From contig OZ076409.1 in the NCBI GenBank assembly GCA_964187785.1, positions 24,864,001 through 24,928,000 on the forward strand: a stretch of 64,000 nucleotides of DNA, written 5' to 3'. A model generated the notes under the pieces. The model was given only the letters and a program-made list of their open reading frames with translations. It was not told the DNA's origin and did not search any database. The translations under genes and the position numbers were made by a program. Each line of letters starts with the position of its first letter. Position 1 is the stretch's first letter. This document shows positions 17,435 through 58,000 of this stretch, piece after piece. The stretch comes from Amphiscolops sp. MND2022. Taxonomy: Eukaryota.

Positions 17435-17632
17435 CTACAAAGCAGTGTACTACGCTAAATGAAATTCAGTTATGTATTAAAGTATTAAAATTTATGTGAT
17501 TCAGCATTGGTAACAAAGCAGGGCTTTAATGAAATTTAAACTCTATCCAACACTTTTTGTTTTATTCGGGAAGGTTTATTTCGTTTTTTGAATTTTTCTA
17601 GAAAAAACGTTTTTCATTTTCGCTATTATTGT

Positions 17633-18820: not shown

Positions 18821-18978
18821 AAAATTGGATGCGTCCAAAATAGTTTTTAGTGCTGTTAGACTTCATAAACTATCATTCATGTTTGTGCGTATTTCCCTTA
18901 AGGGAAATACGCACAAACATGAATGATAGTTTATGAAGTCTAACAGCACTAAAAACTATTTTGGACGCATCCAATTTT
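18821..18978. repeat. Perfect spacer-less 158-bp palindrome (79-bp arms)
   Basis: AAAATTGGATGCGTCC...ATTTCCCTT|AAGGGAAAT...GGACGCATCCAATTTT, centred between 18899 and 18900. Confidence 0.97.
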
Positions 18979-19233
18979 GAGGACGCATCCATCATCAATT
19001 GAGCAATGAAGAACTTTCAGATGGATTTTATTACGACTTGCAACAATTCCAAACTAGTGCGGAAGTCAGTTGACTTCTTTCGTCCATTCGTTGACTCCTT
19101 TCCTCCATCTTAGGAACAATCTTTCGTAATTATCTCCCAAGTTGACCATCATGGCTCATTCTCGGCCTTTCATCATGATTATGGCTTTTTCATGAAATTA
19201 CATTCGAATGATCATTCATGGTGATTTTTATTA

Positions 19234-32585: not shown

Positions 32586-33686
32586 TTTTAAATTTTGGAC
32601 ATCAATTGGTGATCTTTATAGTATCAGTGTAACTCTAGTTGAACTGAATACCAAAGTTTACCACCTTTTTAAATCCCAATCGTGGATAATTCATTTTCGA
32701 AATTATATCTCGTTTTTGGTTCCCAAGATTCTGGTTCTGACGCAATACTAGCCACAAATATTTCACTAACCACAAAAATTTTCAGTAATTTAGAATGAAG
32801 TATGACCAAGCTGAGAACAGCTAGAATTCGGCGCCCGCAACTGACTCAGACAGCGCAAGTTTTTTCAAATGAATTTGAAGACTGTATTCAAGTAAAACTT
32901 GAAAAGCGTGTGTCGAAATATTTTAGAATGGTTACCCTTCGTGCTCACAAAAAGTTTAAACGTAGGTGAAAACATCTCTAAGAAAAACAACGGAAACATA
33001 GTCCTAAAAAGGTTTAAAAACCTTTTGGAGAAAGGAAAAAGAGTTTGAAGAAAGTCAAACAGTGGAGGAAAAAATTAAAAGAGGCCTTTGATGTCATACA
33101 TGAATTAAAATGTTTTTACAAACTTAATGATAGCTGGAATTGAACGCCGTCCTGCTGCTTAAGAAGCCAACGCAGGTACTACTAGGCCAACTGCCAAATC
33201 CTATATCGGCCACCCTGACAGTTTCCTTCGCAATCTTGTCTGTCTTAATTAAAAGAAGGACTGTAATAGACCGGCGATTTTAGTCTTAATTAAAAGTGCC
33301 CAATAAAAATGATGTAATAGATTTCAATGAAAAATTTGAATCGTTGTTGAACGTCCTTTTTCTCTCCCAACACGTTAAAAGTTTCAACATGATGAATTGT
33401 GCCATAAATACATTTTAAAATTTTTTAAACACTTCAATTTACATCATTCCGATGACTTCCCATAGATTCATACAATCATATACTAATTAATAACATTTTC
33501 ACGCGAGTAGGGGAATGGTAATAATTCAGTTCAAAATAAGCTCAAAAACCGACTATGTGCTCTTTCTGATATCTCTACCGATTTCAATAAAAAACTATTT
33601 GACAAAGAAGCAACTAATATTTCTGAAGCCGCTGAACGTAAGTCATCAAAAAAGTAATATTATGAAGTGATTTATGAGAAGTTCTT

Positions 33687-34364
33687 TCAAAGAAGACCGA
33701 TTCGTAAAATGTATTTGTCATAACCTTCTTCATTTTCACTCTGTTCAGAATCTCCTGAACATTCTATTTGATGATTTGGAAGGTTATTTGTTGTCTTATT
33801 TAGTCTATGAAAATTCTCTCTTGAGTCTTGGACCTGCTGGCCAATTCTAATTTTATGCCGTCCATATGACCCTAGGTCCAAAGTCTGGTCCATTGGGACG
33901 TTTCTACTCGGATGCCGTCCATCTGACCGAAGGTCCAATTTTGCGTTTTTACAGTCCCTGTGATTTACTATGACAATTTCGATGCTCGGTAGTATTTTTT
34001 CATCGATGGCAGAGTTTATTACATCCATGATGTGGGAATTTAGGTCAGATTTCATTTCCTCTAATTTCCTTGACATCTGCGAAGAAATTTCTGAACTAAT
34101 TGCTCTGCTAGTTTCTACTGTAATTTCACTATTCTCACTCAAGTTTGTATTCAAAAGAGACCTATAGTTACTTTCTCCATGACTGAAATCTTGTTGCCGT
34201 CCATTTGACTCAGGGTCTATTTCTACTTGATCTACCGTGTTTTGATCCCTAATTTCGCTATTTGAGTAATTTCCGAGCATCACATCTAGATTTTCAATAT
34301 CAGACATTATGTCAGATTGTCTTGAACGTTTCTCTCTTGCTTTCTGCTTTCTAGTTGAAGGCAT
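33687..34364 (-). CDS. LTR-encoded gag-like N-terminus (MPSTRKQKAREKRSRQSDIMSDIENLDVMLG...EEGYD), running out of the LTR into flank
   Basis: ATG lies about 116 bp downstream of the TATA. About 216 codons are open up to the LTR end (TATGACA). Homologous to the ORF at 54456. Gag identity is inferred from position. Confidence 0.6.
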   Translation of the reverse strand: MPSTRKQKAREKRSRQSDIMSDIENLDVMLGNYSNSEIRDQNTVDQVEIDPESNGRQQDFSHGESNYRSLLNTNLSENSEITVETSRAISSEISSQMSRKLEEMKSDLNSHIMDVINSAIDEKILPSIEIVIVNHRDCKNAKLDLRSDGRHPSRNVPMDQTLDLGSYGRHKIRIGQQVQDSRENFHRLNKTTNNLPNHQIECSGDSEQSENEEGYDKYILRIGLL

Positions 34365-35265
34365 TTTCAAGGAATGGATTTGATTTCAACAGTGAATTGA
34401 TCAACAGTAACAAACCAAACAGTTTTGTATCGTAACGCTTTCAATGAATGAATGAATCCCTCTTTTTACAAATTCCGCGTATATATAGATTATACAGCAT
34501 GACACGCAATATTTTGCGTGTCAGGAACTAAATTTAGGGTGATATCATTCTAAATATAGCCCCGATTTCATTGTTAAGTCACTAGTTCTAAAAATAGACA
34601 GAGGGTTTTGACATTACGTCACACAAATGAAGAGATATAAATAGCATCAAACAAATAGTGGGTATCTTTACATGCATTCAAATTCAGGTTAAAATCAACC
34701 TTTCATGTATTGGCAATATCAATATTCAATGAAATTCTAAGTTTGACCATGCGTCAGCATGACTGCAATAATAGACTGGTACTTTACTCTGATTGGTCAA
34801 CAAGTACTTGTGACCACACGTCAATTTGACTGCAGTAGAGTACTAGTTAATTAGCTAAGAAAAGTGTTCTAAAGTACTCTTTAAACACCGTTTAACAGCA
34901 CTTGAGTTACTTGCTAAGTATTGCGGCGTTAACTAAGTGTTGTACTTTAGGTACAAATTAATTGCGAGTAATTTCATCAATGAGAAATTCTAAATAGTAA
35001 CAAATCAATAATAGCAATTGAATAAATACACAGATTGAATGCTGTCAGTTTGACCTTTGGTCTGAATAGCAATATCGAAATTGCATGTTTAGCGTTAATA
35101 ATTCGGTCATTACATGCATGAAACAAATGTTAAACAATCAGAATAGATGCTAAAGTTCGTTTCAAAGTTTGTCCTAGATAGGTAGTACCCCGGGGGCTGG
35201 TGGTGTCTCATTACCTTGTGGCATCATTTGGTATAGGATGCCGTCACAAGCGGCAGCTTGCGACA
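33716..35265 (-). repeat. 3' LTR (1550 bp)
   Basis: TG...CA ends, directly preceded by the PPT. No differences seen versus 47722-49271 (offset 14006). TATATATA at 34480-34487. Confidence 0.95.
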
Positions 35266-35998
35266 CTCCCCCCGGTACAAGTATGAACGTCCCTGCTTTC
35301 ATACCTGCCTGGAATGCATCACGTCTAGCAATCCGCTGCTCATAAGTTTCTCCTGGAATGTGTGTCTGTTCAAGGTACCCCAATGTTATTTCTTCTTTAA
35401 TATCCGCAGATGATTTCCCACAGATCACGCAACCAGTTTGGGTCGTCTCATTGGGTTGGCCACAGCTTCCCCCGACACTAATTCCGAGGCCCGTGATGTG
35501 TGAGTTGCCATACCATGAGTCTGTCAAACCTTGAGGTTGTGTAGGCTGGTAAGTATCAATTGAGGGTCCTTGGTCTTCTGGCGGAGGTGACCATGGGGAG
35601 TCCCGTATTGGGTTTAGCTGGCCACAATACGTTATTGGGTGGTCATCCGCATTTGAGCCATAAGAGGTTCTTGGGGGGCCCCCAACACACCAATCGAGCA
35701 AGTCTTGTGACGGGTCTGTAAAAGTGCTCACTGATCCGATTAGATCGTTATCTGGTATGTTCAGGTCGTTCAAGCAATGAGCTAATTCTGTAGTCATCGC
35801 CCGACCCGCGGTGAGTTGTGGAGGGAAAGGTATATTTTCACGATAACAAGCAAGAACGTGTATGTCGTCGTCCGAATCTTGTCCGTCAGGTCCGTCTGCA
35901 ATAGACACTGAGTCCACTTCCATTTCTTCATCAGATGACTGGTACGAAAGGCTTACTAGAGGTCTATCGTGTTCCTCCAAAGAAAATTGTAGAGACAT
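35174..35998 (-). CDS. Accessory 3' ORF (274 aa from MSLQFSLEE), function unknown, overlapping the PPT and U3
   Basis: Uninterrupted ORF, acidic and Pro-rich, with GCVICGK (CxxC). It is preceded by a branch-point/acceptor-like TGCTAA...TTCTACAAG|GAAATG. The last 30 codons lie inside the LTR, and a homologous tail is at ~3100-3179. Confidence 0.7.
   Translation of the reverse strand: MSLQFSLEEHDRPLVSLSYQSSDEEMEVDSVSIADGPDGQDSDDDIHVLACYRENIPFPPQLTAGRAMTTELAHCLNDLNIPDNDLIGSVSTFTDPSQDLLDWCVGGPPRTSYGSNADDHPITYCGQLNPIRDSPWSPPPEDQGPSIDTYQPTQPQGLTDSWYGNSHITGLGISVGGSCGQPNETTQTGCVICGKSSADIKEEITLGYLEQTHIPGETYEQRIARRDAFQAGMKAGTFILVPGGVSQAAACDGILYQMMPQGNETPPAPGVLPI
35266..35273 (-). other. Polypurine tract
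   Basis: GGGGGGAG immediately 5' of the 3' LTR TG on the minus strand. Confidence 0.85.
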
Positions 35999-36653
35999 TT
36001 CCTTGTAGAAACGTTGAATGAGAAGTTTTTTAGCAATTGTGGCAAACAAGGTTTGTAGCGACTGAGTTTTACAAAGTTTGGGAGGTAAATAATTTCCTGC
36101 TGTCTTCTTGACTTCAGGTCCAACCCCAATTTTGGCGGGGGTTGGGCGCGGGGTTTTCCCCGAATCATAGTTTTCACATTTCCTATTTAGGTTTCGGTTA
36201 AGAGTGGAGTCTCGAGTAATTTTCAAGTAATTTATCTGCGAAGCTTGTTAATTGCCTCTACAAGTTGTTTTACTTTATTCTTCAAAGGCGTCACTTGACA
36301 ATCTAAGTGTTGTCTCTCTTAATTCTTCGTCAACAATTAACTTGAAAGACCGTCGGTCCTTTCGACGGCAGCAATGATGATAACCAATCAAATAATACTG
36401 GATTGGTTGGTAAAATATGACGAATAATTTTAAGAATGTGAAATGAAGTAAATAATTTGATGCATTTTTTAGGTTTAGAGAGTGAAATAAAGTGAAACAA
36501 GTAAAGAAGCCCATGAATATTTCACTGGCAGATTCCATACCATGAACCATGAATAGTAGAATTTGATTAACATAAAGGAAGAGATGGTAACATAAGCGTA
36601 AATCTTACATGTGGCCACGACATCCAAATGATAGTCAAGGTAAGAGCAATAGA

Positions 36654-36728
36654 GATAATAATATTGATAATAATAATTGTACTGTTATTAGTAATAATAA
36701 TAGTAATAATAATAGTAATAATAATAAT
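36654..36728. repeat. Degenerate (ATA/GTA)n low-complexity tract inside the element
   Basis: GATAATAATATTGATAATAATAATT...GTAATAATAATAGTAATAATAATAGTAATAATAATAAT. Confidence 0.8.
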
Positions 36729-37507
36729 GAGGATTTTGGACTGTAAGTTAATGGTGAGAATCAGCAATTAGTAGGAGTAGTAGTTGGAGAGTGAAGTTAG
36801 TGAGAGGAGAAGTGTACTAGATATCAATTAAAGTTGTGCCGTCGAGATGACTCATAGTCCAACATATTGGTAGTGGTTAATAATACTCAATCGCGAACTA
36901 GTAACACACTGCCGTCAAGTTGACGTTACGTCCACAGCTCTGTGCTTTGCGTTAAAGACTATTGCCTTCATCAATTGTTTCCTCTTGTAGTATCACTTGA
37001 GCTAGACTGTATTACCTAGTAATCAGGATAGTCTCTCTGACCTTGAGCAACAAATTGATTCAGTCTTAATTTCGCCTTTTCCTAACCTTTCCCCAACATA
37101 AATTCACAAATTTTGCTTGCTTTAATTTGAATTGATATCCTCAAATTCCACTTTTCTTCTTTATTTTTCATCCAGGTGATCTTACTTCACTACAAGGCTC
37201 TCCAGACACAAATTCCGTGTGAAAGAATTTGGCAAATTCCTGTTCGTCTATTTTACTAACAAACGTCTGGGATTACATTGCGAAGTCAAACAAAATTCAT
37301 CTTCAACAGCGTACAACAATTGGTCACATCAATTCTGTTGATCGAATATGGATTCAACATCAGGTTGGTTCTTTTGAAAGTGTTAAAATTAGGCTTGATC
37401 AGGGCTCATAATTCTAACTAAGTTACTTCCTCCATCGTGAAATGTTTGCTGTCAGCATGAACATTGTGTCAAAAGTATTTCCGGAAATATTTATTGAGCG
37501 CGGCTAG

Positions 37508-40500
37508 ATGGATTCATATTCAGGAAGTGAACCGCGTTTATTCATCTCATTCCGTTTAGGTGATGAATCTAATGGCCAACCTCCCCAATTGGTCACTGAA
37601 GAAGAAAAAATGGATACAACTGATTCCTTTGTAACTGCCTCCTCCACTGTCAATAATTTCCCCACCGTAAAGTCTATGGCTCACGGCCAGAATAACAATG
37701 ACGACAAGTTAGATGATCCTGAGAGAGTAGTGGAAGACGACCGCAGTCCGGTGAGTGAAGGAGCAACTACAAGTTTGGGGAATATCACTGTGACACCTCA
37801 AGATTCCCCCATCACTATTTCCAACACAGAGGCCACTCCTCCTGCTATTACAGCAACTGGGAACGTTGAGAGTAGTAGCACTGATGAGAGTTGTGGGGCT
37901 TACATCGCTCGAAAATGGGAACAATTGGGCTGTTCGCAAGAAACTGGTACATCGAGTCAGAACGACTGGAGCGGCAAGAAGTTTAGCGAGAGTACCATGA
38001 TGGAGCTGATGCCTGGTCAGTATTCCCCTACCCGGGACGAATTGGAGTTGGACGAAGCGCCAGAGGTTGCGTTCCTGGACTCTCCCAAAGTACTATTGAA
38101 AAGCAGTCTCAAGTCTCGATATGGGCCTTCCGAAGCAAAAGTTCAAAGACTGAGTGTGAAGTTGAGTGCTCCAAGGACTGATTTGTCTGGTGCCGCTGCC
38201 GGGACGGGAGGTCTCTCAAGTTCTGAAGCTGGATCTGAGTTCGCTGGGGAATTTGAAGCCCCCAGATTTGCAGAACCAACAACGAACAGGGAATCCGATA
38301 AAGCAACCAGTGACGCCGGGTTAGAGTCTGAAGGATTAGTCGGGTCCACAGTGGCTGATGTCCTGTTCGCACCTGCCCAAGCTAACGTATTTAGAGTGAG
38401 TGATGTAGCCAGCAACACGTCAGTAGATTTCCCTGAATCAGCACCTCGAGTCCCTCAACTGTCAGCTAGTGGCCGCGCTTTGATAAAGGAGTATTTTGAC
38501 GAGGCCAACCCCATCAGATTGTCTCCTGGGCATCCTACCCTTGCATTGAATGAGGGCCAGGTGAGTAGCTTGTTAAAAGTTGTAGCAGATGAAGCAGTTA
38601 AATCGTCGCTGAAGGCTATGGAAAACTTGGTACAACAAGCAAGCAGATTGAGTCTTGTAGCCCAGCGGTCACCGACAGCCGTCATTCCGAGGTCGAAGAA
38701 AACAAGTTCCCAGACCAGTTATGCTGGGTCACAATCTGGTTTGTCATCAGGGCATACAAGCGATACCAGTGGGGGAATCAGAAGTGACGATGATTTCGCC
38801 AGTATTGGATATGTTTACGAGCATTCCGACCTGGAGAGTCAGCATTTTACTCCTCCCCCAACCGGTCCCTCAGGAAGCCGTCAAATTGACCTTGTGTCAC
38901 CTGTAGTTTCAACCCAGCCTGATAGCCCCGGAGGACAAACCTTGGCTGCTCTCAAAGCGGAGGCGGTATCGGAAAAGACTAAGTCAGGAACACGCCGAAG
39001 ACAAAGCAAGAAGCCTACTCGTCCCAAAGGAGAGAGCAGACATCGGGTGCCTCGTGCCTGTAAAATCATGAAAGAGGCGTATTTTAAAGGAATGGAGTGG
39101 ACGAAGACGTTTGTAAGCGGACCAGTTGATCCTCGCTGGAATCCGTACAAATTTTATTGCCAAATCTGTAAAGGCAATATATCAATTTATGGACGCGGCG
39201 CTCGAGAGATCCTTCGTCACCACTCCACTGAACGTCATCTTCGTAAGGATCAAAGGTGGCGATACGAGCATCTTGCCATAGAAGACCCCGTGAGTGGAAG
39301 GGTAAAACACCATGTCAGAGGAAAGGACGGACGACTTCTCACCCCCTATGAGCTTCAATTAGAATTGCCCAAGTTCATTGGGGTGGAACTCGTGGACATC
39401 GGAGAGAAACTTCCTTTCTACGACGAATACGCTCAAGGAGTTGACTACATGGCTTCTTCATCCGACAACCGTGTTCGAGTCCAGATGTCAGTTCTGGGTA
39501 ACTACTTGCGAAGCTACGGCGATATCAGCACCCTGAGGAACCTCTGGCGGGATGTTGGGGTCGTTGTGAACCATCAGTCGCTCTTCACTGACTTTGACTG
39601 GAGTAAAGAACGGCTATCAGTAAGTATTTTCCTGCCGTTAAATCGACTTAAGGTCTTCCCCAGCCCAGTAATCGTTACCTTTGACCTTCATTAAATATGA
39701 TGTTTTCATTCTAGGCTCTCTTCCACCACCTGTTCTTACAAACTATTCATGACATTGGAGACCATGTAGTTGCAGCGGGCGAGTATTCTCTGGAATTTAT
39801 CAAGCAAGGAGTCTTCCTGTTAGTGTTCATTCGTTTCTGGAGAAAGGACGAACTCTGCCGAGTTTTCCTGAAGCGAACCGGCCGTGTCCTGGGACAGTCG
39901 GCAGCCGAATTAAGCCTCATAAGTGACGTTTTGGCAGTTTTCTCACCCGGCCCCAACATTGTCAGTTGCTCCGGTTGCAGCCTGGAAACGATTCAGAAGG
40001 TAGATAGTTCTCCTTACAGTAAGCATGGACTCCAACACCCTCTCAGATTTGAGGACTTTTCAATCGCGCGGCTAATGCATAAAGAAAGCTATAGCGTCTT
40101 TGGACGTATCGACTTCCACTCCGTTCTCAAGTATCTTATCATCTTCTTGGGGGGAAGCCTCGACTGCGATTGGACCTTGATGACGCCAGTGTTGGCAAAG
40201 GTTAGACTCTCTCATTTTAGGCTTTTAGTCCACGGCTATTTCGAAGGTACTAATAAACTTGTTGTGCTCAGGCTGTTCGTACTTGCCAAATTGAACTCGC
40301 CACTCTCCCAACACTGTGTCAGGAGCTGCTTGCTAACTGGACAGATGTGACCAAATTCCTGAATGAACATGCACCTCCGCATGAAATGATGGGAGTGAGA
40401 AAACAAGTAAGTCTCTGCCGTCCCGTTGACCTTCAGTCTAATTTCAGTTGTTTCAATTTTCCTTTTGTTGTTCTAGCCTCAGAACCTAGAGCGAGCCATG

Positions 40501-41760
40501 ATCCATGATGAGTTGTTTCTGTGCCGACTTGAGCTCTTCTATCGCTTGGTCAGGGATTGTAAGTATAGTCCACCCGTGGTACGTATCATTTCTTGAGCTT
40601 TCGACAATCATAGCGAACGCAAATGTTTAGATACCACGAGCTTTGTGCCACATCTGACTGAACGACGGGATCATGGATTCCATATCTACAGGCAGTTATG
40701 CCAGTACCTCTTCAAGCTAGGAAGGCGCTGCATCAAGCCGAAAAGTCTGCCACAGGAAACAGATCTGTCAGGGATTTTGGGTATTGCTATGTCGGATGCC
40801 AAAGCCTTAGCCATTCCCGATTTCATCGCCCGATCGAAGCTCGACCAACGACTGAACGTGGCTTGCAAGGTCAAGGCAGAAAAGGAATTGAGCGACAAGA
40901 AGGGCAATCGGGCTAATCTTCCGAAACTCGTGAAGGAGAACAAAGAAGAGTTTGGGCGACTTGGGAGGAGCTACGTTGCCTACCTTTTCCATGCTGCCCA
41001 AAACAACTTACAACTGACCTCCACCATTGTGAAAGGATTGGGCTCCTTTGATCTGGACATTATGTATCGTTCTCCCCTTAGCCAGGCGCTGAATTGTTTC
41101 AAGCATCTTTTCTGCAGCTTTCATCTTCGCGGTTACTTTCAAGCCGACGCGGAGTCCATCTATACAGAGGAATATTTATCATTCCTTGACGAGATCCGCA
41201 AAGAGATGCCTGATTTGAGCCAACCAAGGGTCATAATCCAGGATGCAGTGACTCACATTTCCAATCATGTTGCCTTAGAGTCACGACCCCATCTTGCTCG
41301 GATCTTTAAGCTGAGCTGTTTATGTTTGGATGAGAGTTATGTTAGTATGCCTACCGTGAAGTTTGGTCCAGTGCGGACAGATGACCCCAAAAGTAAACTT
41401 ATTGACACCATTCTGCCTGTTCAATCCTTCTTTATTAACGTGGGGAGGAGTATAGATGCCTTCACTTCAACTTCTTCAATAGCTAAGTTCCTTTCCTTCG
41501 AACCTACGTTCGGGAATACTGCCTTCTCTGATATGTATAGCCCCTGGGACAGCCTCAATCGCTTCGATCGCTCTGAAATTCTTGCTGCTTTACGTCCGGG
41601 CTCGATGAAGAGGAAGACTGAAGGTCGAAAACTGAGGTTTAAGGATTTGAAAAGCAACAGCAGTTCCAAGAGTCTTCCGCCAGCCAGTGCCAAAGGATCG
41701 CCTGTGAGGCGTCAATCAGACAGCGAGTTGCCCTCTAGTTCATCTATTAAAGACACTTAA
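37508..41760 (+). CDS. Antisense spliced gene inside the retrotransposon: ~1314-aa zinc-finger protein, probably hAT-transposase-derived. Exons 37508-39619, 39715-40200, 40272-40406, 40477-40558, 40631-41760
   Basis: Four GT-AG introns (39620-39714, 40201-40271, 40407-40476, 40559-40630; phases 0,0,0,1) join three long ORFs and two short exons into one stop-free frame. It contains a BED/TTF-like finger, FYCQICKGNISIYGRGAREILRHHSTERH, and YSLEFIKQGVFLLVFIRFW resembles hAT core strands lacking the first Asp. A possible alternative first mini-exon 37348-37363 (MDSTSG) splices in frame to 37560. Confidence 0.85.
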
Positions 41761-41978: not shown

Positions 41979-44900
41979 CTAGTATCTGTATTCGTCAGTA
42001 AAGTTGGGGGTAGGATTGGGGCGTAAGTTATATTTCCCTCCCCTAGGACTTTCATTTTCTACAACACAATCATCAGTTTCTTCAATTAATACATCGGGCA
42101 CGATTGTATCGTTCCCCCCAGAAGTTGAAAATTCTGAATTTTCATCCCTAGGTAGGTCCCGATTTGTCAATTCATCGTTTTCGAATTCGGTATTTTGTTG
42201 CCGTCTATCGGACTGACGGTCTTCATTGTGTGCATTTCTTGAGTACTGCTCCGTATTATCAGCCTCAGTATTTGATTGCCGTCGGGCGGACCGAAGGTCC
42301 GCTTCGTTTATTTCGTTTGAGCGTGAGTCACTATCAGTATCATCAGCGCGAGCGGCATCAGTATTTGTTTGCCGTCGCGTGGACCGTAGGTCCAAATCGG
42401 TTATTATAGCATCTTGTTCATCAGAATTGGTAGGGAGTTCATTAGTAACAGTCCGATTTTCAGAGTTAGGAGGGAAATCGTCAAAATTGGTGTCCCATGA
42501 AATGATGTACAGATCATCTTGTGGAATAATAATTTCATCGTCAGCTTGTAAATTTCCTTCGGGACGAATGTCTTGTGGGGTAGTATTTGGAGTGTATTTT
42601 CTAAGGCGTATGCGGTGTAATATCTGCGTTTTGTTAGTACTAAGTTTGCGAACAATATAGTTGTCATTAGGTAAAACTTTTTCTATGACGTACGGTCCGA
42701 TCCAACGAAATTCACGAAAAGGAATTTTAGAGCCTTGATGGTCAGCTAGAGGTTGTAAAATGAAGCAAAAATCTCCTTGTTGTAGAGGAGCTGCTTTAGC
42801 CTTTCGGTCATAATATTCCTTGTACTTTAAATATGATTGCATGATGTTTTTCTTTGTTTGATCAATTAATATTTGCGTGCGTCTTTGAAATTCTTCAGCA
42901 AAATCAGTCGTTGGAGTGATCTTTGGGTTAGGGTTTAATCCTAACCGATGGTCTAAGATATTATAGGGTACTCTTCCGTGAAAAATTCGGGTGGGTTCGC
43001 ATCCAAGACTTGAATGATAGGTCGTGTTATAATTAAGGACGGCCAATGGGAGATATTTGTGCCATTGACGCCTGTATTCGCCTGATGCCATTTTAAGGTT
43101 GCCCTTAAGGCTGGCATGAGTGCGTTCTAGTTTGCCTATCGTCTGAGGATGCTTTGTAGTCGCACACCGAAGGTGAATCCCCAAGATTTTGGTAATTTCT
43201 TCTAGTAGTTTGGACGTAAAGGCAGTGCCTTTGTCGGTGATTAGCGTAGTCGGCAAATAGGAATGTTTTGTCATGATATCAATAATGACCTTTGCCGTAT
43301 TGACGGCCGAAGCGTCCGTTACTGGGTAGGCAAAAAGATATCTCGAAAACACGTCCAGAGCCGTTATGACATTTTCGTATCCTCCACTTGGGGGTAAGTT
43401 GGGCAAAATGTCAATTTGTAAGGCATCTTCTGGGCCAAGATCCCATTCAGGTAAATTGAGTAATTCAGGTGTTATGGATGCATTGTTGATTCTTTTGTCT
43501 TTTATACAAATTTCACATCCTTGGACCCACTTTTTGACAATTTTTGCGATTCCAGGATAGTAATATTTTTGTCGAATTTCGTGCAGCATTTTTGAGATTC
43601 CCGGGTGTTTGTTCGCGGAACCATGTAGTGATTGAAGTAATTCTGTGACTAGATGTTTCGGTAGTAATGCTTGGCGGAATTGGACACTGCCTGTTTCATC
43701 GTAGTAGTCTCTGAAAATGATGTCATCATGTACGGACAGACGGTCAATTTGACGGCAGTAATGTCGGTAGCGCGAATCTTGCTGTAAGATGGTTTCAGAG
43801 TATTCTTCTTTTTGCAGTTTGAGTCGTAATTGATGCAAGATAAGGTCGTTCTGTTGTTCTATAGCCATGGTGGTTGGTTTTGCCAGTTTTTGTATATTTT
43901 GATTTTGGAATTGTGTATTATCATGAGTGCTAAGATGATCTAACAAAATATCAGGAGGTTGATTCGTTGGGTTTGACCTGGCGTCTTGTTTGCGTTTCCA
44001 GATTTGTTCTTCTGTTTCTTCATCATCGTCCGTATAGAAGATCTGTTCCTCTTCAGTAACTCCCGCTGATTGGACGTTGAGTTCGATTGGTGTGGTGGAA
44101 ATATCTTCTCGTATCCGGAGTATAAGTTTTTCTTTGGGACAGATTTCTAGACGTGACAAGTAGTCAGCAGCAGTATTGTTTTTGCCAGGTATATGGGCTA
44201 TTGTGAAACTGAATTGCATAACGTAGTCACACGCGTTCCACAATGTGGGTGGAATGATTTTTGTTTGAAAAAAGCGAGTGACTGACTTGTTGTCTGTTAG
44301 TATTATCACCGGTTTCGGGGTCCCCCAGAAGATATGGCCAAATTCTTTAAATGCAAAGAATATTGCTAAGAATTCTTTGGCATAAATGGACATCTTCAGT
44401 TGGGCTGGACTAAAGGTCTTGGATCCATATGCTACAGGTGCGAAGGCTTTTCGCGTCGAAGTATATTTTTCCATCGGATCGTCCTCGATGAGAACTGCAT
44501 AACCTGCTGCCGAAAAACTAGCGTCTGTCATCAGGGCTATCTGTTTGTCGGGTAGAGGTTGTTTGAGCGCCAGTTCACAACATCGGTCAAGAGCTTTGTT
44601 GATCTCGGTGAATTTTTCTAACAGATCGGGTGTCACCATGACTTTGGCATCACTTTTCAAGAGCTTGAAGAACGGTGTGAGTTTTTCTGAGAGTCTAGGA
44701 ATGTAGTTGCGGTAGTAGTTCAGGAATCCCAAGTATCTTTGAAGAGCTTTCTTGGATTTAGGGAATTTGGTCTTTTCCAAGAAATTCTGGACCCTGGGTC
44801 GTTGTGGCCGCACCCCTTCAGGAGTGATGGTACGTCCCAGGAAGTCGATTTCCTTGGCGCCAAAATGGCATTTGTGCATCGTTAGTTTGAGGCCAGCAGC
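41979..44900 (-). CDS. pol: Pol C-terminal part: RT end, RNase H, integrase (H2C2, DDE core, GPY/F), low-complexity tail
   Basis: KCHFGAKEIDFLG; TDASFSAAG...ELA-like KEFLA...LTDNKS...ADYLSR (RNase H); HGSANKHPG...CEIC; LQIDILP, ITDKGTAF, PQTIGKLERTH; WIGPYVIEK. Confidence 0.95.
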   Translation of the reverse strand, partial: AAGLKLTMHKCHFGAKEIDFLGRTITPEGVRPQRPRVQNFLEKTKFPKSKKALQRYLGFLNYYRNYIPRLSEKLTPFFKLLKSDAKVMVTPDLLEKFTEINKALDRCCELALKQPLPDKQIALMTDASFSAAGYAVLIEDDPMEKYTSTRKAFAPVAYGSKTFSPAQLKMSIYAKEFLAIFFAFKEFGHIFWGTPKPVIILTDNKSVTRFFQTKIIPPTLWNACDYVMQFSFTIAHIPGKNNTAADYLSRLEICPKEKLILRIREDISTTPIELNVQSAGVTEEEQIFYTDDDEETEEQIWKRKQDARSNPTNQPPDILLDHLSTHDNTQFQNQNIQKLAKPTTMAIEQQNDLILHQLRLKLQKEEYSETILQQDSRYRHYCRQIDRLSVHDDIIFRDYYDETGSVQFRQALLPKHLVTELLQSLHGSANKHPGISKMLHEIRQKYYYPGIAKIVKKWVQGCEICIKDKRINNASITPELLNLPEWDLGPEDALQIDILPNLPPSGGYENVITALDVFSRYLFAYPVTDASAVNTAKVIIDIMTKHSYLPTTLITDKGTAFTSKLLEEITKILGIHLRCATTKHPQTIGKLERTHASLKGNLKMASGEYRRQWHKYLPLAVLNYNTTYHSSLGCEPTRIFHGRVPYNILDHRLGLNPNPKITPTTDFAEEFQRRTQILIDQTKKNIMQSYLKYKEYYDRKAKAAPLQQGDFCFILQPLADHQGSKIPFREFRWIGPYVIEKVLPNDNYIVRKLSTNKTQILHRIRLRKYTPNTTPQDIRPEGNLQADDEIIIPQDDLYIISWDTNFDDFPPNSENRTVTNELPTNSDEQDAIITDLDLRSTRRQTNTDAARADDTDSDSRSNEINEADLRSARRQSNTEADNTEQYSRNAHNEDRQSDRRQQNTEFENDELTNRDLPRDENSEFSTSGGNDTIVPDVLIEETDDCVVENESPRGGKYNLRPNPTPNFTDEYRY

Positions 44901-47018
44901 CTGATGCACTGGAACGTTGCTCGAAGGTTGTTGATGAGCTGGGTAGCGTCATTTGCAGCTATCCCAATATCATCTACGTACTGAGCACATTGGTCAGCTT
45001 TTATCACTTTATCCAGGTATTCGCGCATAAAGCTCGAAAATGCGGACAGCGCTCTGCTTAGACCTTGGGCAAGTCGGCGATAGGCAAATGTTCTGCTGGC
45101 AAAATTGAATGCCAGCATCTCGATTGACCTCTGGTCAGCCATCTGAAGGCAGTGGTATGCTTGGGAACAATCAAGTTTGCAAAATAATCGTTTACCTGCC
45201 ATGTGCTGCGCAGCATCCGTTAGTGTGCTGACAGGATGGTTGTTGTTGATGTAATCGTCAGAAATCAGGTTGTTGATCTTTCGGAGGTCAACCAGGAGTC
45301 GAAGTTTGCCGTTAGGTTTTTTCTGGGCAAAGATGGGACTGGCATATTTGGAAAATGGGAGAGTTGTTATAATCCCATATCGATGTAGTAGTGCTAGTTC
45401 TACAAGGATATCTTCTTTGAGGTTGATGGGAGTAGGTAAGCTTTGACTATAGGCAGGGGAATCATCTTTAGGGGTCAAAGTGACCTTGAAGTCTTCGTTC
45501 ATACCTATATCGAAGCGGTGTCGTGCAAAAATATCGTGAAATTCAACAAGTAATTCTTCAATTTGGGCAATTTCGGCTGGATTTAGCGTAGAGTCTGTCC
45601 AGTCAAAGTTAGCAAGAAATTGTTTCCGCGATTCAGGGTCATCCTGAGGGTTGAGTTTCTCTAAATCTTGGAGATTTCGTAGTTCCCTAAGGATTCTTTG
45701 TTGTATGGGTGTGTGAGTTTGAGGATCTCCTGGTTCTTCTGGAGTAGGGAACCAGTAGTTCTCACTATCATCGTTAGTTTTCGGGGATTTGATCAGGCTA
45801 CTGGCATAATAGGCAGCATTTTCCGGGTTATCCTTCGGAAGGTGCCAAGTTGTCACGGGATCAATGGGTTTGACGTATTTCATCTGCTCTGGTGTGAGGA
45901 CAGAGAAATTGGCAATGTGCGAACCTCTTTTGAGGGTGTACGGTTGGTCAGTGAAATTGTTGACATGAATTGATACCTGACCTTGGGTCAGTGTGACTAG
46001 AGCGGCGCAGAAGGTTATATCACCATCATCTGCAAGGTCGTTGCTCGGTTGAAGGATTCCAGTGACGTTTGTGTCGTCATATAGTTGTGAGAACATGGAA
46101 ACCATATGTCTGTCGTTGGGGGGAATAGTTATATCCTCCCGTGCACAGATAGGTTCCATGACATTAGTGTACTTGTGGTCCGCTGTTTTCAATTGCATGG
46201 AGAAGAAAGGGAAGTTTAAAACTCCTTGACGCATGTCCAGTATGGTATTGTTCCGTTGCAGGAACGGGAGACCAATTAACGGACTTGTGAGTTTTTCCAT
46301 GACGATGAAGATCTCATGGAAATCGATGTCCCCGACTTCGAATTTGAGTTCAACAGTGCTCTTTGGAGTCTCCAGCTGTCCATTGGCTACCATAATCTGG
46401 AAGTTGGGTGCCGGGCCCTCTTTAACTATTGACTGAGGGGCTAACAATCGGATTTTACGTAGATCAGCTTCTGGGATAGCGCTAGATAGGGCTCCCGTGT
46501 CTACAAGGCCATCTAAAGTTAGTTCGCCAAAATCCATGGGGAAGTAGAGCATCCGTCGTTTGTATTTGAGTCCCAAGTTGGTCGTCAACGGGACGTAGTC
46601 AGGTTCACCGTTTCGTGAGATCAGCGTATTCACAAAGCGCTCTTCCACTGTTGCCGTCAATGTGACCAAAGGTCCATTGTGTGGAAGTTGTTCGGGTATG
46701 GCCTCCTGGGTTGGTGAATTAGTGTTAATCCACACTTTTTGCCAGGGGTCAACAGAGGCCGTGGATAGTTTTGTGTTCAGAAGCTGATCAATGTGAGGTT
46801 GATCATGTTCGATATCGGCAATTTGTTTGGTGAAATTTTTGTAGAAGTGTAGCTGATGTTGGTTGTAGATTTGAATGTCCCAATAGGGGTCGAATCCGAA
46901 GTCCGGGTCAGGATAATATGGGTTATAGTTATCGATTAGGGGAAGGGGGCGAATGGTCGTAGTATTAGAGTGCTGTCTGTCGGACTGAAGGTCCGGTTTG
47001 TGTAAGTGAGTAGGGCAA
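44882..47018 (-). CDS. pol: Pol N-terminal part: aspartic protease and reverse transcriptase; 1-nt frameshift near 44900
   Basis: LVDTGA protease motif; SPIFAQKKPNGKLRLLVDLRKIN, KLDCSQAYHCL and QYVDD RT motifs. The frame stays open upstream of the tracked ORF start (46735) right to the junction at 47018. Confidence 0.93.
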
Positions 47019-47721
47019 TTTAAAAACCTTTTGGAGAAAGGAAAAAGAGTTTGAAGAAAGTCAAACAGTGGAGGAAAAAATTAAAAGAGGCCTTTGATGT
47101 CATACATGAATTAAAATGTTTTTACAAACTTAATGATAGCTGGAATTGAACGCCGTCCTGCTGCTTAAGAAGCCAACGCAGGTACTACTAGGCCAACTGC
47201 CAAATCCTATATCGGCCACCCTGACAGTTTCCTTCGCAATCTTGTCTGTCTTAATTAAAAGAAGGACTGTAATAGACCGGCGATTTTAGTCTTAATTAAA
47301 AGTGCCCAATAAAAATGATGTAATAGATTTCAATGAAAAATTTGAATCGTTGTTGAACGTCCTTTTTCTCTCCCAACACGTTAAAAGTTTCAACATGATG
47401 AATTGTGCCATAAATACATTTTAAAATTTTTTAAACACTTCAATTTACATCATTCCGATGACTTCCCATAGATTCATACAATCATATACTAATTAATAAC
47501 ATTTTCACGCGAGTAGGGGAATGGTAATAATTCAGTTCAAAATAAGCTCAAAAACCGACTATGTGCTCTTTCTGATATCTCTACCGATTTCAATAAAAAA
47601 CTATTTGACAAAGAAGCAACTAATATTTCTGAAGCCGCTGAACGTAAGTCATCAAAAAAGTAATATTATGAAGTGATTTATGAGAAGTTCTTTCAAAGAA
47701 GACCGATTCGTAAAATGTATT
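47019..47721. repeat. Copy of the element's outer flank 33013-33715, sitting where PBS/gag should be
   Basis: 33013-35265 recurs at 47019-49271 (offset 14006), including the GTATT TSD. Confidence 0.95.
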
Positions 47722-48370
47722 TGTCATAACCTTCTTCATTTTCACTCTGTTCAGAATCTCCTGAACATTCTATTTGATGATTTGGAAGGTTATTTGTTGT
47801 CTTATTTAGTCTATGAAAATTCTCTCTTGAGTCTTGGACCTGCTGGCCAATTCTAATTTTATGCCGTCCATATGACCCTAGGTCCAAAGTCTGGTCCATT
47901 GGGACGTTTCTACTCGGATGCCGTCCATCTGACCGAAGGTCCAATTTTGCGTTTTTACAGTCCCTGTGATTTACTATGACAATTTCGATGCTCGGTAGTA
48001 TTTTTTCATCGATGGCAGAGTTTATTACATCCATGATGTGGGAATTTAGGTCAGATTTCATTTCCTCTAATTTCCTTGACATCTGCGAAGAAATTTCTGA
48101 ACTAATTGCTCTGCTAGTTTCTACTGTAATTTCACTATTCTCACTCAAGTTTGTATTCAAAAGAGACCTATAGTTACTTTCTCCATGACTGAAATCTTGT
48201 TGCCGTCCATTTGACTCAGGGTCTATTTCTACTTGATCTACCGTGTTTTGATCCCTAATTTCGCTATTTGAGTAATTTCCGAGCATCACATCTAGATTTT
48301 CAATATCAGACATTATGTCAGATTGTCTTGAACGTTTCTCTCTTGCTTTCTGCTTTCTAGTTGAAGGCAT
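47693..48370 (-). CDS. Second copy of the LTR-encoded gag-like N-terminus
   Basis: Translation identical to 33687-34364. Confidence 0.6.
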   Translation of the reverse strand: MPSTRKQKAREKRSRQSDIMSDIENLDVMLGNYSNSEIRDQNTVDQVEIDPESNGRQQDFSHGESNYRSLLNTNLSENSEITVETSRAISSEISSQMSRKLEEMKSDLNSHIMDVINSAIDEKILPSIEIVIVNHRDCKNAKLDLRSDGRHPSRNVPMDQTLDLGSYGRHKIRIGQQVQDSRENFHRLNKTTNNLPNHQIECSGDSEQSENEEGYDKYILRIGLL

Positions 48371-49271
48371 TTTCAAGGAATGGATTTGATTTCAACAGTG
48401 AATTGATCAACAGTAACAAACCAAACAGTTTTGTATCGTAACGCTTTCAATGAATGAATGAATCCCTCTTTTTACAAATTCCGCGTATATATAGATTATA
48501 CAGCATGACACGCAATATTTTGCGTGTCAGGAACTAAATTTAGGGTGATATCATTCTAAATATAGCCCCGATTTCATTGTTAAGTCACTAGTTCTAAAAA
48601 TAGACAGAGGGTTTTGACATTACGTCACACAAATGAAGAGATATAAATAGCATCAAACAAATAGTGGGTATCTTTACATGCATTCAAATTCAGGTTAAAA
48701 TCAACCTTTCATGTATTGGCAATATCAATATTCAATGAAATTCTAAGTTTGACCATGCGTCAGCATGACTGCAATAATAGACTGGTACTTTACTCTGATT
48801 GGTCAACAAGTACTTGTGACCACACGTCAATTTGACTGCAGTAGAGTACTAGTTAATTAGCTAAGAAAAGTGTTCTAAAGTACTCTTTAAACACCGTTTA
48901 ACAGCACTTGAGTTACTTGCTAAGTATTGCGGCGTTAACTAAGTGTTGTACTTTAGGTACAAATTAATTGCGAGTAATTTCATCAATGAGAAATTCTAAA
49001 TAGTAACAAATCAATAATAGCAATTGAATAAATACACAGATTGAATGCTGTCAGTTTGACCTTTGGTCTGAATAGCAATATCGAAATTGCATGTTTAGCG
49101 TTAATAATTCGGTCATTACATGCATGAAACAAATGTTAAACAATCAGAATAGATGCTAAAGTTCGTTTCAAAGTTTGTCCTAGATAGGTAGTACCCCGGG
49201 GGCTGGTGGTGTCTCATTACCTTGTGGCATCATTTGGTATAGGATGCCGTCACAAGCGGCAGCTTGCGACA
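47722..49271 (-). repeat. 5' (or solo) LTR, 1550 bp, with GTATT on both sides
   Basis: GTATT|TGTCAT...GCGACA|GTATT. No PBS follows it. Confidence 0.95.
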
Positions 49272-53217: not shown

Positions 53218-53417
53218 NNNNNNNNNNNNNNNNNNNNNNNNNNNNNNNNNNNNNNNNNNNNNNNNNNNNNNNNNNNNNNNNNNNNNNNNNNNNNNNNNNN
53301 NNNNNNNNNNNNNNNNNNNNNNNNNNNNNNNNNNNNNNNNNNNNNNNNNNNNNNNNNNNNNNNNNNNNNNNNNNNNNNNNNNNNNNNNNNNNNNNNNNNN
53401 NNNNNNNNNNNNNNNNN
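53218..53417. other. Assembly gap (200 N)
   Basis: Run of N. Confidence 1.
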
Positions 53418-55041
53418 CAAAGATTGAAAGGCGCTTTGTAATTGTAAACGTAATCAGAATACGTGGCAATGTAGCTGTATAGCGTGAAGGAACCGAGTTT
53501 AAGTGGACGAGACTCCTATTCCGGAGACGTCACTTGAGCTCAGCATTTTAGCCAATCACGTCGCTTCTCTTTGCTATATTAGTACTGTTTTGATTATGTA
53601 GTGGCCGAGTATGGCCAATTGACTCAATATATATACTCCACTACACGCTTTAGTCGAATGGCCGGTTCCGGCCACCTAGATGAAGTGAATTGTATACTCG
53701 TGTAATTAACCATAACAATCGGAAATTGCTGTAAATGTATCCCTAATGATGAATGAAAGCCTCCACCCCGATCAATGAACCTAGTAGACCTAGTGCTAAT
53801 ATAAAGGCCGAAGTCTTTTGCCCTCCCTTATTATAATGCTGGATTAAAAAACCGGATTTGTCCATTTTCGGCCTTGATAAAAAGTGTGATATTTTGATAG
53901 TGTAGTACTATTTTAAACAAGCTGATCATGTAATATTTGATTTTGTTTCAACCTGTGTTAAATAATAAACACGTGGCAACGCGTGTCGCAATGACATTCC
54001 AAAAGGGATGCCTCTTACATTCCTTCAGTGAGTATTGGTATTTGTTGACAAGATAATGGTGTTGATGTTTTCATAAAACAATACTTAGAGGTGCGGTTTG
54101 TGTACCTACCGAAGTGCTATTTATTTGATGTTGGATTCTCAGAAATTACCTGAATGTCGGGAATTTACCCGATTGGGGTTTCACTCAAATATGTGCTTTG
54201 AAGTGTTGATTACTTCACTAGTAATAATGATGATGTTTACCTCGTGACCTGTTAAGGCCGCGATCATGTAATATTCTCTTAATCAAAGAGTCCGTGGAAT
54301 GTGGCTGTCACCTTTTGAGAGTATATATACCTATGTTTCGAGAGGAGAAGTCATATTTTTCACATCTCTGCTTTGATAAAGAGTGAATTGATATAACGAT
54401 TCTCAACTAGTTTTCCGGTTTAAATAATTGAACTATTTGACCCGGTTCTGTCTTGATGCCTGTGACTAGGAAACAAAAGAAAGCGAGGAAATCGAGATGA
54501 ATAGAGATGCTCTCGGATATAGAAAACTTAGACATCATGCTTGGTGAAAACCATTATAGCAGGAATGAAAGAGATGAGAGCGTCAACAGTAATCAGGCTA
54601 GGGGACCAAGAAGCGTCCTAAGAGATGAATTTGAAAACAATGGTGAAAATAATTACCTGGAAACAGGTAGTCTCGACCCCGGTACTAGTGCCAATCATGG
54701 CCAAAATTCAACAGGAGACAATTCAAGTGCCGAGATCAACAGGTTGTCAAGCGAGTTGAATTCGAGATTGTCTATGGAACTTGATGATATGATGAGTAGT
54801 GTTAATACCCAGATTCAGAGGGCAATCAATGATGCGATCAGTGGTCAAATCTTACCGCAAATCCAATCTGTCCTAAATGCCGGATCGGGACAATCAACAC
54901 TAAATAAATGGAACGTTCCGTCCGAGAGACCGGAAGTGAACTCCGAAGAGACCTTTGGTGAGAAAGCCAAGAAAAGCAATAGAAGTGAGCAGCGCTTTGA
55001 TTACCAAAATGGTAGTCAGCCTAACTTACGTGCTTACGACA
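53418..55041 (+). mobile_element. LTR of a related Gypsy family (start lost in the gap); partial second copy at 57302-58451
   Basis: GTATATATAC at ~54321, then a gag-like ORF ending at ...TACGACA (RAYD, cf. GYD/TATGACA in the main element). No PBS follows. Confidence 0.7.
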
Positions 55042-58000
55042 ACTGCATAGCTAGTTTTATCGTCTTCTTACGTTTTAAATCCTATAACACATAAAACTTC
55101 TCGGAAAATGTACACGATTTGAAAATATTAAAAAACGATAAAAACAGGATTTTTGTGGACAATTCGACATTTTCCTCTTCAATTTTTGTGAAATAAATGC
55201 ATTAATCTCTTCACAAAAGCCTACTGGACAACGATTTTTTTTGCTTTTCGAACGTTTTCAACATTTTAATTCACGACATTTAAGTTATTATTTATTTATT
55301 TAATTTATTAAATTTGACCATAGTTGGATAAAAACATAAAAATTAAAACTTTTTGGAGTTTTTGTCAATTTCGGGGTCAAGGAGACATTTTCCATGAAAA
55401 GTTGCATTTAGTTTTTAGACAAGCCTCCTGGACAACGAATTCTTTCCTTGTTGAACGTTTGTTCCTATTTGATCTTATCACACATTTATTCCGTGGTACG
55501 ATTTTCAGTAAGATTTGTAGCATTTTTGTAAAATCGTTCCACATCGTAACTAGAATAAGCCTGATAGTGCTGAGCGTCAGCCGGGAATCGCCAAAAAAGC
55601 AATTTCCTCGTTATTAGTTACTCGGGTTACCACTCCTTACATTCATACTTTGACCAAAAAAAACCCTGTGACAAGATGTTGGTACGAAATCTACGAACTT
55701 GACTTGGGCTGGACTCGTTGTTATATTCATCAAATTATCAATGATCAGTCATGATAAAAGATATCGGAGTGTATGTAAAGTTAATTTATAAAATTTCTTT
55801 CGAGGGTGATTTCAGGGGTAATAGACGTTGGTAAAAATACTTTCAGACAGAAATAAATTGACTAAAATTCTCGATTACCGCTCGACTGAAATGCGGCCTT
55901 TTTTGAGATCTCAATGGAACAAATTTAGCACGTTGCTTTAGTTAATGGGCCGGCCTTTGTTGGTTACTGTCAGAAGAAAAATTACTCCAATGGGCGTAAT
56001 GGGGAACATGGGCAATAAATTTGGCGAGATTTTTTTCCACAAAGGAAGCAACGAGGCATAAAACTGGGATAGGACTAACAAAAATGCGGGGCTCTAAAAA
56101 GCATGTCGAATATATTAAAAAGTCTTTGTTGAAGGTCTTGGGTATCTGTACATTTCATGAATTTCAAACATTTTCCTGGCTTGGGAAATTCTGTTTAATC
56201 CTAATATTGTAAAACAACAAATCATTTATGTAGCTTCAACTTTTAGAGAAGTAGGAAACTGAATTTTTGGAAGTATCAGTAATTTCCTGTCACGTTAGGG
56301 AGTTTGCCCACCTATTATATTAACAATTCAAATTTCGTAACTGAATTAGAGTAATTGACTGTCATCAAAGAGTTTCCATGCTAGCGGCTTCTTTCTAAGA
56401 TTGTTGTAATTTTTCATTTCCTCCGACGTTTCCTTCGAGTTCACACAGAACACTTTTATCAAACCGGCTGTTCTGTTTCGTGTTTTTATCAAACCGGATC
56501 TCTGTTTGGCTAACGACTTCGACTATTTTTAACTTCCTTTATGATATTCAATGATTCAGCCTTTTTCAATCAACAGTGGTATCTTTGTATGTGTGCTTTA
56601 CAAGATATTTATAATACATTTACCAAAGTATACTGTAAAGAGGGAAATTGTAGTATCTTTTGATAAGATGCATAATGAATGCTTTTTTCCTGGGAGCGAT
56701 AAGCAGGGAAAAACAAATTGATGGGATAGAAAATAATGAGATACATCACTCCGCTAAATTGGCTCCCAATTGTATAACAACCCTTCGAATTCTTGATAAT
56801 GTCTAGGAACAAATTTCAGCTACCGTATCTAATTTAACATGCTTTCTACTGTAAAATGTTCATATAGCTTACATTTCCTCTAGTTTTGTAGTATGACTAC
56901 GAGCTGAACAAAATATCATCAACAATTCAAATTGAAAAAATCTGTGGAAAATGTAAATACAATAAAAACAGCTAATTTACTGGAAATAGTTCCTACCAAT
57001 ACACCGGTTGCTCCTAATAATTCCTTGAGAGGTGTGTGTATACTTTATAAGAAATGACTCAATTTGCAACTCTGGTTCCAATTTAGAGAACATTTAATAT
57101 TTGCTGTTTTATAAACATTCGAGTTTAGAAAATGGTTCCAGCACAAGTATTAAAGCTCTCAGTTTTCATGACAAATAGTTCAAAAACCATTCCATTTCAA
57201 GTATAGCATTTCAAAGGCGGAATTATTCAAATTAGGTTATTAAAATAGGGCGTATGAAAACAAAAACAAATTATAATCAACCATTTCCTGATTTGATGCT
57301 GTTTTGATAGTGTAGTACTATTTTAAACAAGCTGATCATGTAAGATTTGATTTTGTTTCAACCTGTGTTAAATAATAAACACGTGGCAACGCGTGTCGCA
57401 ATGACATTCCAAAAGGGATGCCTCTTACTTTCCTTCAGTGAGTATTGGTATTTGTTGACAAGATAATGGTGTTGATGTTTTCATAAAACAATACTTAGAG
57501 GTGCGGTTTGTGTACCTACCGAAGTGCTATTTATTTGATGTTGGATTCTCAGAAATTACCTGAATGTCGGGAATTTACCCGATTGGGGTTTCACTCAAAT
57601 ATGTGCTTTGAAGTGTTGATTACTTCACTAGTAATAATGATGATGTTTACCTCGTGACCTGTTAAGGCCGCGATCATGTAATATTCTCTTAATCAAAGAG
57701 TCCGTGGAATGTGGCTGTCACCTTTTGAGAGTATATATACCCATGTTTCGAGAGGAGAAGTCATATTTTTCACATCTCTGCTTTGATAAAGAGTGAATTG
57801 ATATAACGATTCTCAACTAGTTTTCCGGTTTAAATAATTGAACTATTTGACCCGGTTCTGTCTTGATGCCTGTGACTAGGAAACAAAAGAAAGCGAGGAA
57901 ATCGAGATGAATAGAGATGCTCTCGGATATAGAAAACTTAGACATCATGCTTGGTGAAAACCATTATAGCAGGAATGAAAGAGATGAGAGCGTCAACAGT

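Follow-up and report, generated by a model that had tools for sequence, protein, structure and literature searches.

How does an intron-bearing gene come to lie on the opposite strand of a retrotransposon, and what might it do for its carrier? The question is raised by a 64,000-nucleotide (nt) stretch of contig OZ076409.1 from Amphiscolops sp. MND2022 (positions 24,864,001 to 24,928,000 of the forward strand; hereafter the window), in which a Gypsy element with long terminal repeats (LTRs) holds, between pol and its 3' LTR, an antisense gene that the sequence-only reading took for a hAT transposase gene captured and repurposed as an accessory factor. The analysis showed that the gene is not a nested insertion: it is fixed, as an accessory gene, in a Gypsy clade that is large and was recently active, and its last exon and zinc finger were tied by profile comparison to a hAT transposase clade. 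A DNA tag dispersed through the same elements gives the predicted protein a candidate target.

The antisense gene and its fixation

The gene lies on the plus strand, convergent with pol and with the two stops 218 nt apart, and once its four GT-AG introns (95, 71, 70 and 72 nt) are removed, its five exons form a single frame of 3,945 nt that ends in the only stop, which confirms both the exon structure and the placement behind pol given by the sequence-only reading. An alternative intron 3 donor at 40420 also keeps the frame open, the conserved donor being 40407. The GT and AG of all four introns were kept in 10 of 10 near copies, with intron lengths of 80 to 95, 68 to 76, 68 to 71 and 70 to 72 nt, and in the seven diverged near copies the introns were about 45% to 70% identical in comparison to about 70% to 83% for the exons. 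In 20 copies picked for distance, donor 1, acceptor 1 and acceptor 2 were kept in all 20, donor 2 in 19 and donor 3 in 18, while in the 19 of these copies with exon 5, acceptor 3 was kept in 18 and donor 4 and acceptor 4 in all 19. Splice sites were retained in relatives with as little as 30% protein identity, and the gene is real.

The N-terminal 494 amino acids (aa) consist of 15% Ser and 14% Asp plus Glu, in agreement with the Ser-rich, acidic N-terminus of about 500 aa noticed earlier, and the basic patch and CxxC...H...H finger described with it were both found, the patch preceding the finger and the finger being conserved. A helical-looking island lies in the disordered N-terminus (window 38435-38645, about residues 310-380), where matches to distant relatives begin, and it is possibly a protein-interaction module. 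The database search gave 485 relatives in all, and among the 150 listed relatives that were inspected, most of those reaching the end of exon 1 terminate shortly past it, as by reading through an unspliced donor. In P0013, P0098 and P0123 exon 1 is continuous with exon 2, and in P0190, P0201 and P0213 exon 4 is continuous with exon 5; these junction-spanning relatives could be transcripts or intron-less copies. A weak search among the longer database proteins gave no full-length spliced relative, and no relative was found in the metagenome collection.

Exon 5 was used to search the genome of 1.07 Gb, which gave 7,723 first-look candidates, and the 109 of them that were scored were 72% to 100% identical and mostly stop-free. 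Among the distant copies, the gene was antisense beside an integrase in 16 of 20, and 15 of those 16 lay between paired LTRs; the remainder comprised L121, which lies between LTRs and has neither pol nor exon 5, one clade A set (L113-type near copies included), and two copies in a different, giant element. In a sample drawn independently of the gene (20 of 135 integrase hits, chosen as not matched to earlier gene hits), exon 5 was antisense at the expected place in all 20. Terminal inverted repeats, which the sequence-only reading had named together with absence from sister copies as the mark of a nested insertion, were not found around the gene, the longest inverted match between its flanks being 9 nt and non-terminal; no search aimed at an 8-bp duplication was made.

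The ratio of non-synonymous to synonymous change (dN/dS), for which a value below 1 had been anticipated, was 0.07 to 0.24 against L015, a copy about 95% identical, and 0 to 0.58 against L013, where changes are few. Five further copies were also constrained, with synonymous sites saturated (0.76 to 0.96) and a non-synonymous difference of 0.10 to 0.16 in the core. The gene is under purifying selection. Trees of the gene, pol, gag and a second accessory open reading frame (ORF) on the sense strand of the element gave the same main clades A, B, C and D, with shuffling within clades. Between clades reverse transcriptase was 88% to 98% identical and exon 5 down to 29% to 51%. Within clade A, L025/L026 and L027/L028 are 97% to 98% identical to the window copy in pol and 73% in exon 5, indicating that modules recombine.

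The giant element that also carries a copy of the gene has neither gag nor pol and is at least 28 kb long, its left end not being reached (L131+L093+L094, L132-L134, L135+L091+L092). Two of its copies are 99.65% identical over 27 kb and have a common right end, 88-nt tandem arrays and weak SET-like ORFs; a third holds a different version of the cassette.

hAT ancestry and the catalytic positions

The comparison that bears on ancestry was made with a hAT clade, A7, which was reached from a motif of one hAT subgroup. The motif found four relics in the genome (L156:1027-2325 on the minus strand, and L153-L155), and one of these, which reads as a transposase with both catalytic Asp residues, retrieved 338 homologs, of which 50 long ones were aligned. 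The clade is widespread in animals, with no curated Pfam match. The A7 alignment matched canonical hATs with probability 90 and E 1.6e-6, with the D, D, CxxH, RW and E positions in register. Against A7, hhalign gave probability 91.9 and E 6.9e-7 over 226 columns for exon 5 and probability 77.9 and E 1.8e-5 for the finger, and reversed and block-shuffled controls scored at most 22 in comparison to 58 for exon 5 and at most 25 in comparison to 38 for the finger. The matches of the finger, exon 2 and exon 5 all fall on this one clade, and their order along it is that of the protein. In the ESM Atlas, the finger-plus-exon-2 part of P0013 lay beside DUF4371, ZBED5 and ZBED1 clusters with scores of 0.87 to 0.92, and its ten best family-bearing neighbours belonged to one family or clan, the listed ones being hAT-type, a result which according to the tool's own warning is also reached (10 of 10) by a third of shuffled proteins. 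For exon 5 the Atlas gave only unrelated helical families, below 0.9. The profile comparisons show that exon 5 and the finger are related in sequence to a hAT transposase clade, in support of the resemblance first noticed by eye.

The check by profile and structure that had been proposed gave a match on the profile side, and the structural side yielded nothing usable: the exon 5 model, built from nine sequences, reached a predicted local distance difference test (pLDDT) value of 38, and Foldseek with this low-confidence model returned nothing at E<=0.001. A search for DUF4371 found no match in the genome, and its controls were likewise unmatched.

At the first catalytic Asp position the window copy has Ile and none of 31 copies has Asp, and at the catalytic Glu position it has Lys and none of 30 copies is acidic, both in a low-confidence hhalign register; at the second Asp position it has Ser and Asp occurs in 0 of 31, in a manual register, where hhalign instead deleted that strand. 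Catalysis has likely been lost, judging from these residues. The earlier claim that the catalytic Asp is absent stood as far as Asp itself is concerned, at either position, and is qualified by the quality of the registers and by an acidic residue at the first position in some copies. Together with fixation and selection, the hAT profile match supports the view that a DNA-transposon gene was captured and turned into a Gypsy accessory gene.

A dispersed DNA tag and its possible reader

Introns 1 and 3, otherwise diverged, retain a motif that recurs across the element, TGCCGTC-N5-GAC-N5-GTC (tag A). The window holds 15 exact and 10 one-mismatch sites, all 25 inside the element, and the genome holds 3,919 exact matches in comparison to 5 for the reversed pattern, most of the first 100 being clustered. 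The sites lie on both strands, in LTRs, gag, pol, introns and spacers. Each of 13 clade A copies has 15 to 21 exact sites in 20 kb, again on either strand, and subfamilies have gained some sites and lost others; neither the giant element nor 176 kb of hAT loci contained tag A. The 5/5 spacing held in 167 of 168 matches from nine elements, with free spacer letters, and one of four spacer pairs co-varied (38 of 80 in comparison to 22 when shuffled). Since the spacing is fixed and the spacers mostly do not co-vary, a protein reading DNA suits the tag better than an RNA stem. An RNA hairpin was accordingly rejected, three spacer pairs being without co-variation and the tag occurring on both strands.

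Other clades have tags of their own. Tag A was found at 12 to 15 sites in three clade A elements and at none in 15 others; tag D (TGT.G[CT]C-N5-GAC-N5-GTC) at 9 and 5 sites in two elements and at none in 16 others; tag C (GGC-N5-GCC-N6-GGCCT) at 5 to 6 sites in three elements and 0 to 1 elsewhere; and tag B, a GGCC dyad, at 5 to 10 sites in eight elements and 0 to 5 elsewhere. The tag appears to reach codon choice: at one integrase site encoding the same Cys-Arg, clade A has TGC CGT and clade D TGT CGC, each fitting the tag of its own clade, and in clades B and C the site is lost, with amino-acid changes. The finger loop also differs by clade, being mostly SIYGRG in A, SIK[ST]KG in B and SI[FY]SKG in C. 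These sequence patterns show that the tag is selected and clade-specific in the elements. Three of the tag sites lie in the integrase tail (window 42199-42392) and are translated there as a repeated peptide of the DLRSxxR type; this peptide repeat may have arisen incidentally from the DNA tag.

We lean, with little more than even confidence, towards a reading in which the dead transposase protein binds the tag on its own family with a favourable effect, namely open or transcribed copies. On this account an ancestral Gypsy element would have acquired a hAT transposase gene in reversed orientation between pol and its 3' LTR. This gene would be expressed from its own spliced transcript, as its conserved orientation and splice sites suggest, and because it is antisense its introns stay unspliced in the genomic RNA, to be copied along with the rest of the element. 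The protein would have lost its cutting residues, kept the zinc finger and helical body and gained the long disordered Ser/acidic N-terminus, becoming a nuclear, multimeric DNA-binding protein that may recognise the three-part tag across its own element family, several fingers of the multimer presumably reading the tag as Hermes does on its ends. Binding could then keep own-family copies open or transcribed in trans, as VANC does, and since finger residues and tag diverged together between clades, such action would be family-specific.

Several observations weigh against this reading. Because the antisense gene, pol, gag and the sense ORF all share the same clades, the correlation between tag and finger cannot name the binder; the four or five clades are non-independent tests, and the tag could be bound by a host factor or by some other protein of the element. 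The elements that yielded tags B, C and D are also those in which these tags were counted, so that their independent part is the absence elsewhere; tag B is short and turns up 10 times in unrelated loci totalling 176 kb; and motif search gave no clear tag in L095, L107, L109 and L129. The CpG ratio is 0.81 in the element in comparison to 0.91 to 0.97 in the flanks, a depletion so slight that DNA methylation need not be the silencing mark. As to descent, no Pfam hAT family matched the protein and PF02892 did not match at the finger, solved structures were unmatched by sequence, and neither the six profiles of canonical host hATs nor the ORFs of 47 host hAT loci gave a match. Exon 2 matched A7 in order and in register at E 0.014, but its score of 25 compares with up to 29 in shuffled controls. 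Finally, Glu stands at the first catalytic position in 11 of 31 copies, and two residues upstream of it lies an invariant Glu.

If the tag has another reader, such as the product of the sense ORF, Gag, integrase or a host factor, the hAT-derived protein could act as a scaffold, or take part in nuclear import or in the targeting of integration. We consider this unlikely, while still the most serious of the alternatives: the clades common to all four element genes and the fast divergence of the sense ORF (28% to 60% identity between clades) favour it, but the antisense gene product is the only element protein descended from a sequence-specific DNA binder, and one would hardly expect each clade to present a different site to a host factor. 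Truncated transposases are known to repress DNA transposons, and the protein might in a similar way bind the tag and repress its own family as a brake on copy number. Tag sites cluster in the LTR and in the region upstream of where the gene itself starts, which fits feedback of either sign; the clade is, however, abundant and recently active, with near-identical LTRs and many open pol frames, and tag divergence between clades would fit a selfish, family-specific benefit, which together make repression improbable.

An origin outside hAT, through chance likeness or capture of the finger alone, would account for the unmatched Pfam families, the weak exon 2 and the lack of a confident structure. 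It appears very improbable to us, given that the finger, exon 2 and exon 5 match one clade in order and that the listed Atlas neighbours are hAT-type. Least credible, and already largely refuted, are an independent nested or hitch-hiking DNA transposon and the RNA hairpin. The single co-varying spacer pair and the two loci with the gene but without gag or pol speak for them, whereas the gene's presence in every integrase-selected copy checked, the lack of terminal inverted repeats, the three other spacer pairs and the occurrence of the tag on both strands speak against; both gag-less copies, moreover, group with a Gypsy copy and share its flanking DNA.

Returning to the protein as reader of its own family's tag, a wider proposal would be that an animal LTR clade has a transposase-derived system of its own for counter-silencing or self-activation, in which the tag reaches codon choice, protein and tag co-diversified, and the cassette moved into a giant non-LTR element; on the sequence evidence we hold this to be plausible, somewhat short of an even chance. 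A class II transposase would have become a class I accessory gene, and the antisense orientation lets a multi-intron gene survive reverse transcription down to 30% identity with intron positions unchanged. The clade-matched protein-tag pairs provide natural, built-in controls, and if binding and de-silencing are true, an animal retrotransposon would have a VANC-like system, which might help explain the abundance of the clade.

The carrier element and comparison with known systems

The carrier was assigned to the Gypsy LTR retrotransposons by its protease, reverse transcriptase, RNase H and integrase order, LTRs, primer site, polypurine tract and short target duplication (Table 1). In the window copy the primer binding site and most of gag (about 1.3 kb) are missing, and a copy of the downstream flank stands in their place, so that sister copies served to judge the element, its primer site included. 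The LTRs of these copies are 1.5 to 1.9 kb long and end in TG..CA; 5-bp duplications are present, as is a TGG primer site, and pol is in many a single frame of 1,726 to 1,741 aa. The flank copy may be a template switch or an assembly artefact; the N gaps of the window (2168-2367 and 53218-53417) lie away from both flank copies. A 2,253-nt repeat was rejected as the LTR, because sister LTRs are about 1,500 to 1,555 nt long and the additional 702 nt are flank. The gag frame opens inside the LTR (window 47721-48370, minus strand), about 215 gag codons being therefore present in both LTRs, and in sister copy L016 a 610-aa frame crosses the primer site; the start of gag may resemble that of acoel elements. 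Lying between the polypurine tract and the antisense gene, the sense ORF matched nothing in Pfam. Subfamilies exchange it, so that it is 91% to 99% or about 28% identical in copies with near-identical pol. No Rfam family and no tRNA were found, and a bacterial promoter scan, a type not apt here, stayed at chance.

Table 1. Positions in the window of the antisense gene, the carrier element and the tag sites
Feature	Positions	Strand	Remarks
Exon 1	37508..39619	+	Low-complexity N-terminus of about 494 aa, basic patch, zinc finger, start of structured region
CxxC...H...H zinc finger	39158..39238	+	Matches N-terminal finger of hAT clade
Intron 1	39620..39714	+	95 nt, phase 0; one-mismatch tag site at 39633
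Exon 2	39715..40200	+	Probable RNase H-like core; Ile at first catalytic Asp position; match weak, E 0.014
Intron 2	40201..40271	+	71 nt
Exon 3	40272..40406	+	45 codons
Intron 3	40407..40476	+	70 nt; exact tag site at 40416, retained in 10 of 10 near copies
Exon 4	40477..40558	+	
Intron 4	40559..40630	+	72 nt
Exon 5	40631..41760	+	hAT helical insertion and C-terminal region; Lys at catalytic Glu position
3' LTR	33715..35265	-	Identical to 5' LTR
Second accessory ORF, sense strand of element	35174..35998	-	274 aa; enters 3' LTR
Polypurine tract	35266..35273	-	
pol	41979..47018	-	Protease, dUTPase-like, reverse transcriptase, RNase H, integrase, in Pfam order; two frames in window copy
Duplicate of flank 33013-33714	47019..47720		702 nt; occupies place of primer site and gag body
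5' LTR	47721..49271	-	1,551 nt; gag frame start within; AATAC on both sides
Tag sites in 3' LTR	33856..35062		Exact at 33856, 33913, 34195; one mismatch at 34745, 34812, 35040; repeated in 5' LTR, 47862-49068
Tag sites upstream of antisense gene	36098..36932		Exact at 36348, 36837, 36910; one mismatch at 36098
Tag sites within pol	42199..46993		Exact at 42199, 42277, 42370, 43735, 46652; one mismatch at 46971

Elsewhere in the window lie a long foldback element (14139-21861) with arms 80% to 85% alike and internal repeats of about 185 nt, a tandem duplication (53887-60194, about 3.4 kb) that adjoins an N gap and has a 197-aa ORF per unit, and a fragment (3124-3180) that is 72% to 74% like the LTR start and comes from a related element.

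Acoel genomes are described as LTR-rich in the available part of PMC9911081. For decades LTR retrotransposons have been known to carry antisense accessory genes to which neither an origin nor a function was assigned, and the present one has a traceable origin and a testable target. In the plant Retand/Tat Gypsy elements (Grande gene23, RIRE2, TRP28) and the fungal Boty, ORFs lie antisense behind pol, their origin and function being stated as unknown in the accessible text of PMC7264820 and PMC11963269. They are alike in orientation, in occupying the interval between pol and the 3' LTR, in being conserved and present in most copies, and in that nuclear location or DNA binding was proposed. They are described there without clear origin or target, whereas in the present gene four introns are conserved, the ancestry can be traced to hAT and a target can be proposed; the word intron is absent from the text of PMC11963269 as far as it was available, and the TRP28 domain (PF04195), which marks the Retand antisense ORF, had no Pfam match in the protein. 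Bdelloid rotifer LTR elements are alike in being from an invertebrate and in having a dUTPase and extra non-envelope genes common to element types; the third ORFs captured there are esterases, exonucleases and envelope-like proteins, and the word transposase is absent from the portion of PMC5408684 at hand. Our literature search, outside which lay Repbase reports, subscription papers and supplements, found no hAT-derived, intron-bearing antisense gene in an LTR element.

The VANC proteins, whose family-specific binding motifs sit in introns and spacers of the VANDAL elements that encode them (PMC5735166, in part), are likewise accessory proteins encoded by an element, with a short family-specific motif in many own copies and co-divergence of the two, according to the available sections of PMC5735166 and PMC6719617. 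Here too, a family-specific motif was found many times inside the element and rarely outside. VANDAL, in contrast, belongs to the DNA transposons of plants, and VANC has MAIN among its relatives (PMC13547354, in the part available), while the present carrier is a Gypsy retrotransposon whose hAT-related protein gave no Pfam match to a VANC- or MAIN-related domain. The VANC motifs are described in these sources as 8 to 9 nt long, in tandem arrays and non-coding, in comparison to a spaced, three-part tag that is dispersed and also lies in coding DNA; for VANC they report binding and demethylation as demonstrated, whereas for the present protein binding is predicted. According to a 2019 review, in the part available, no anti-silencing factor that is encoded by an element and directed against the piRNA or KRAB pathways had been described (PMC6719617).

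Among hAT transposases, several BED fingers of the Hermes multimer bind repeated sites, according to the accessible text of PMC10368747. The present protein shares with Hermes and the A7 clade a finger and a helical region, with a probable core between them, in the same order, and differs from them in having no D-D-E in the registers obtained and no terminal inverted repeats, in its disordered N-terminus and the inserts between finger and core, and in moving by reverse transcription.

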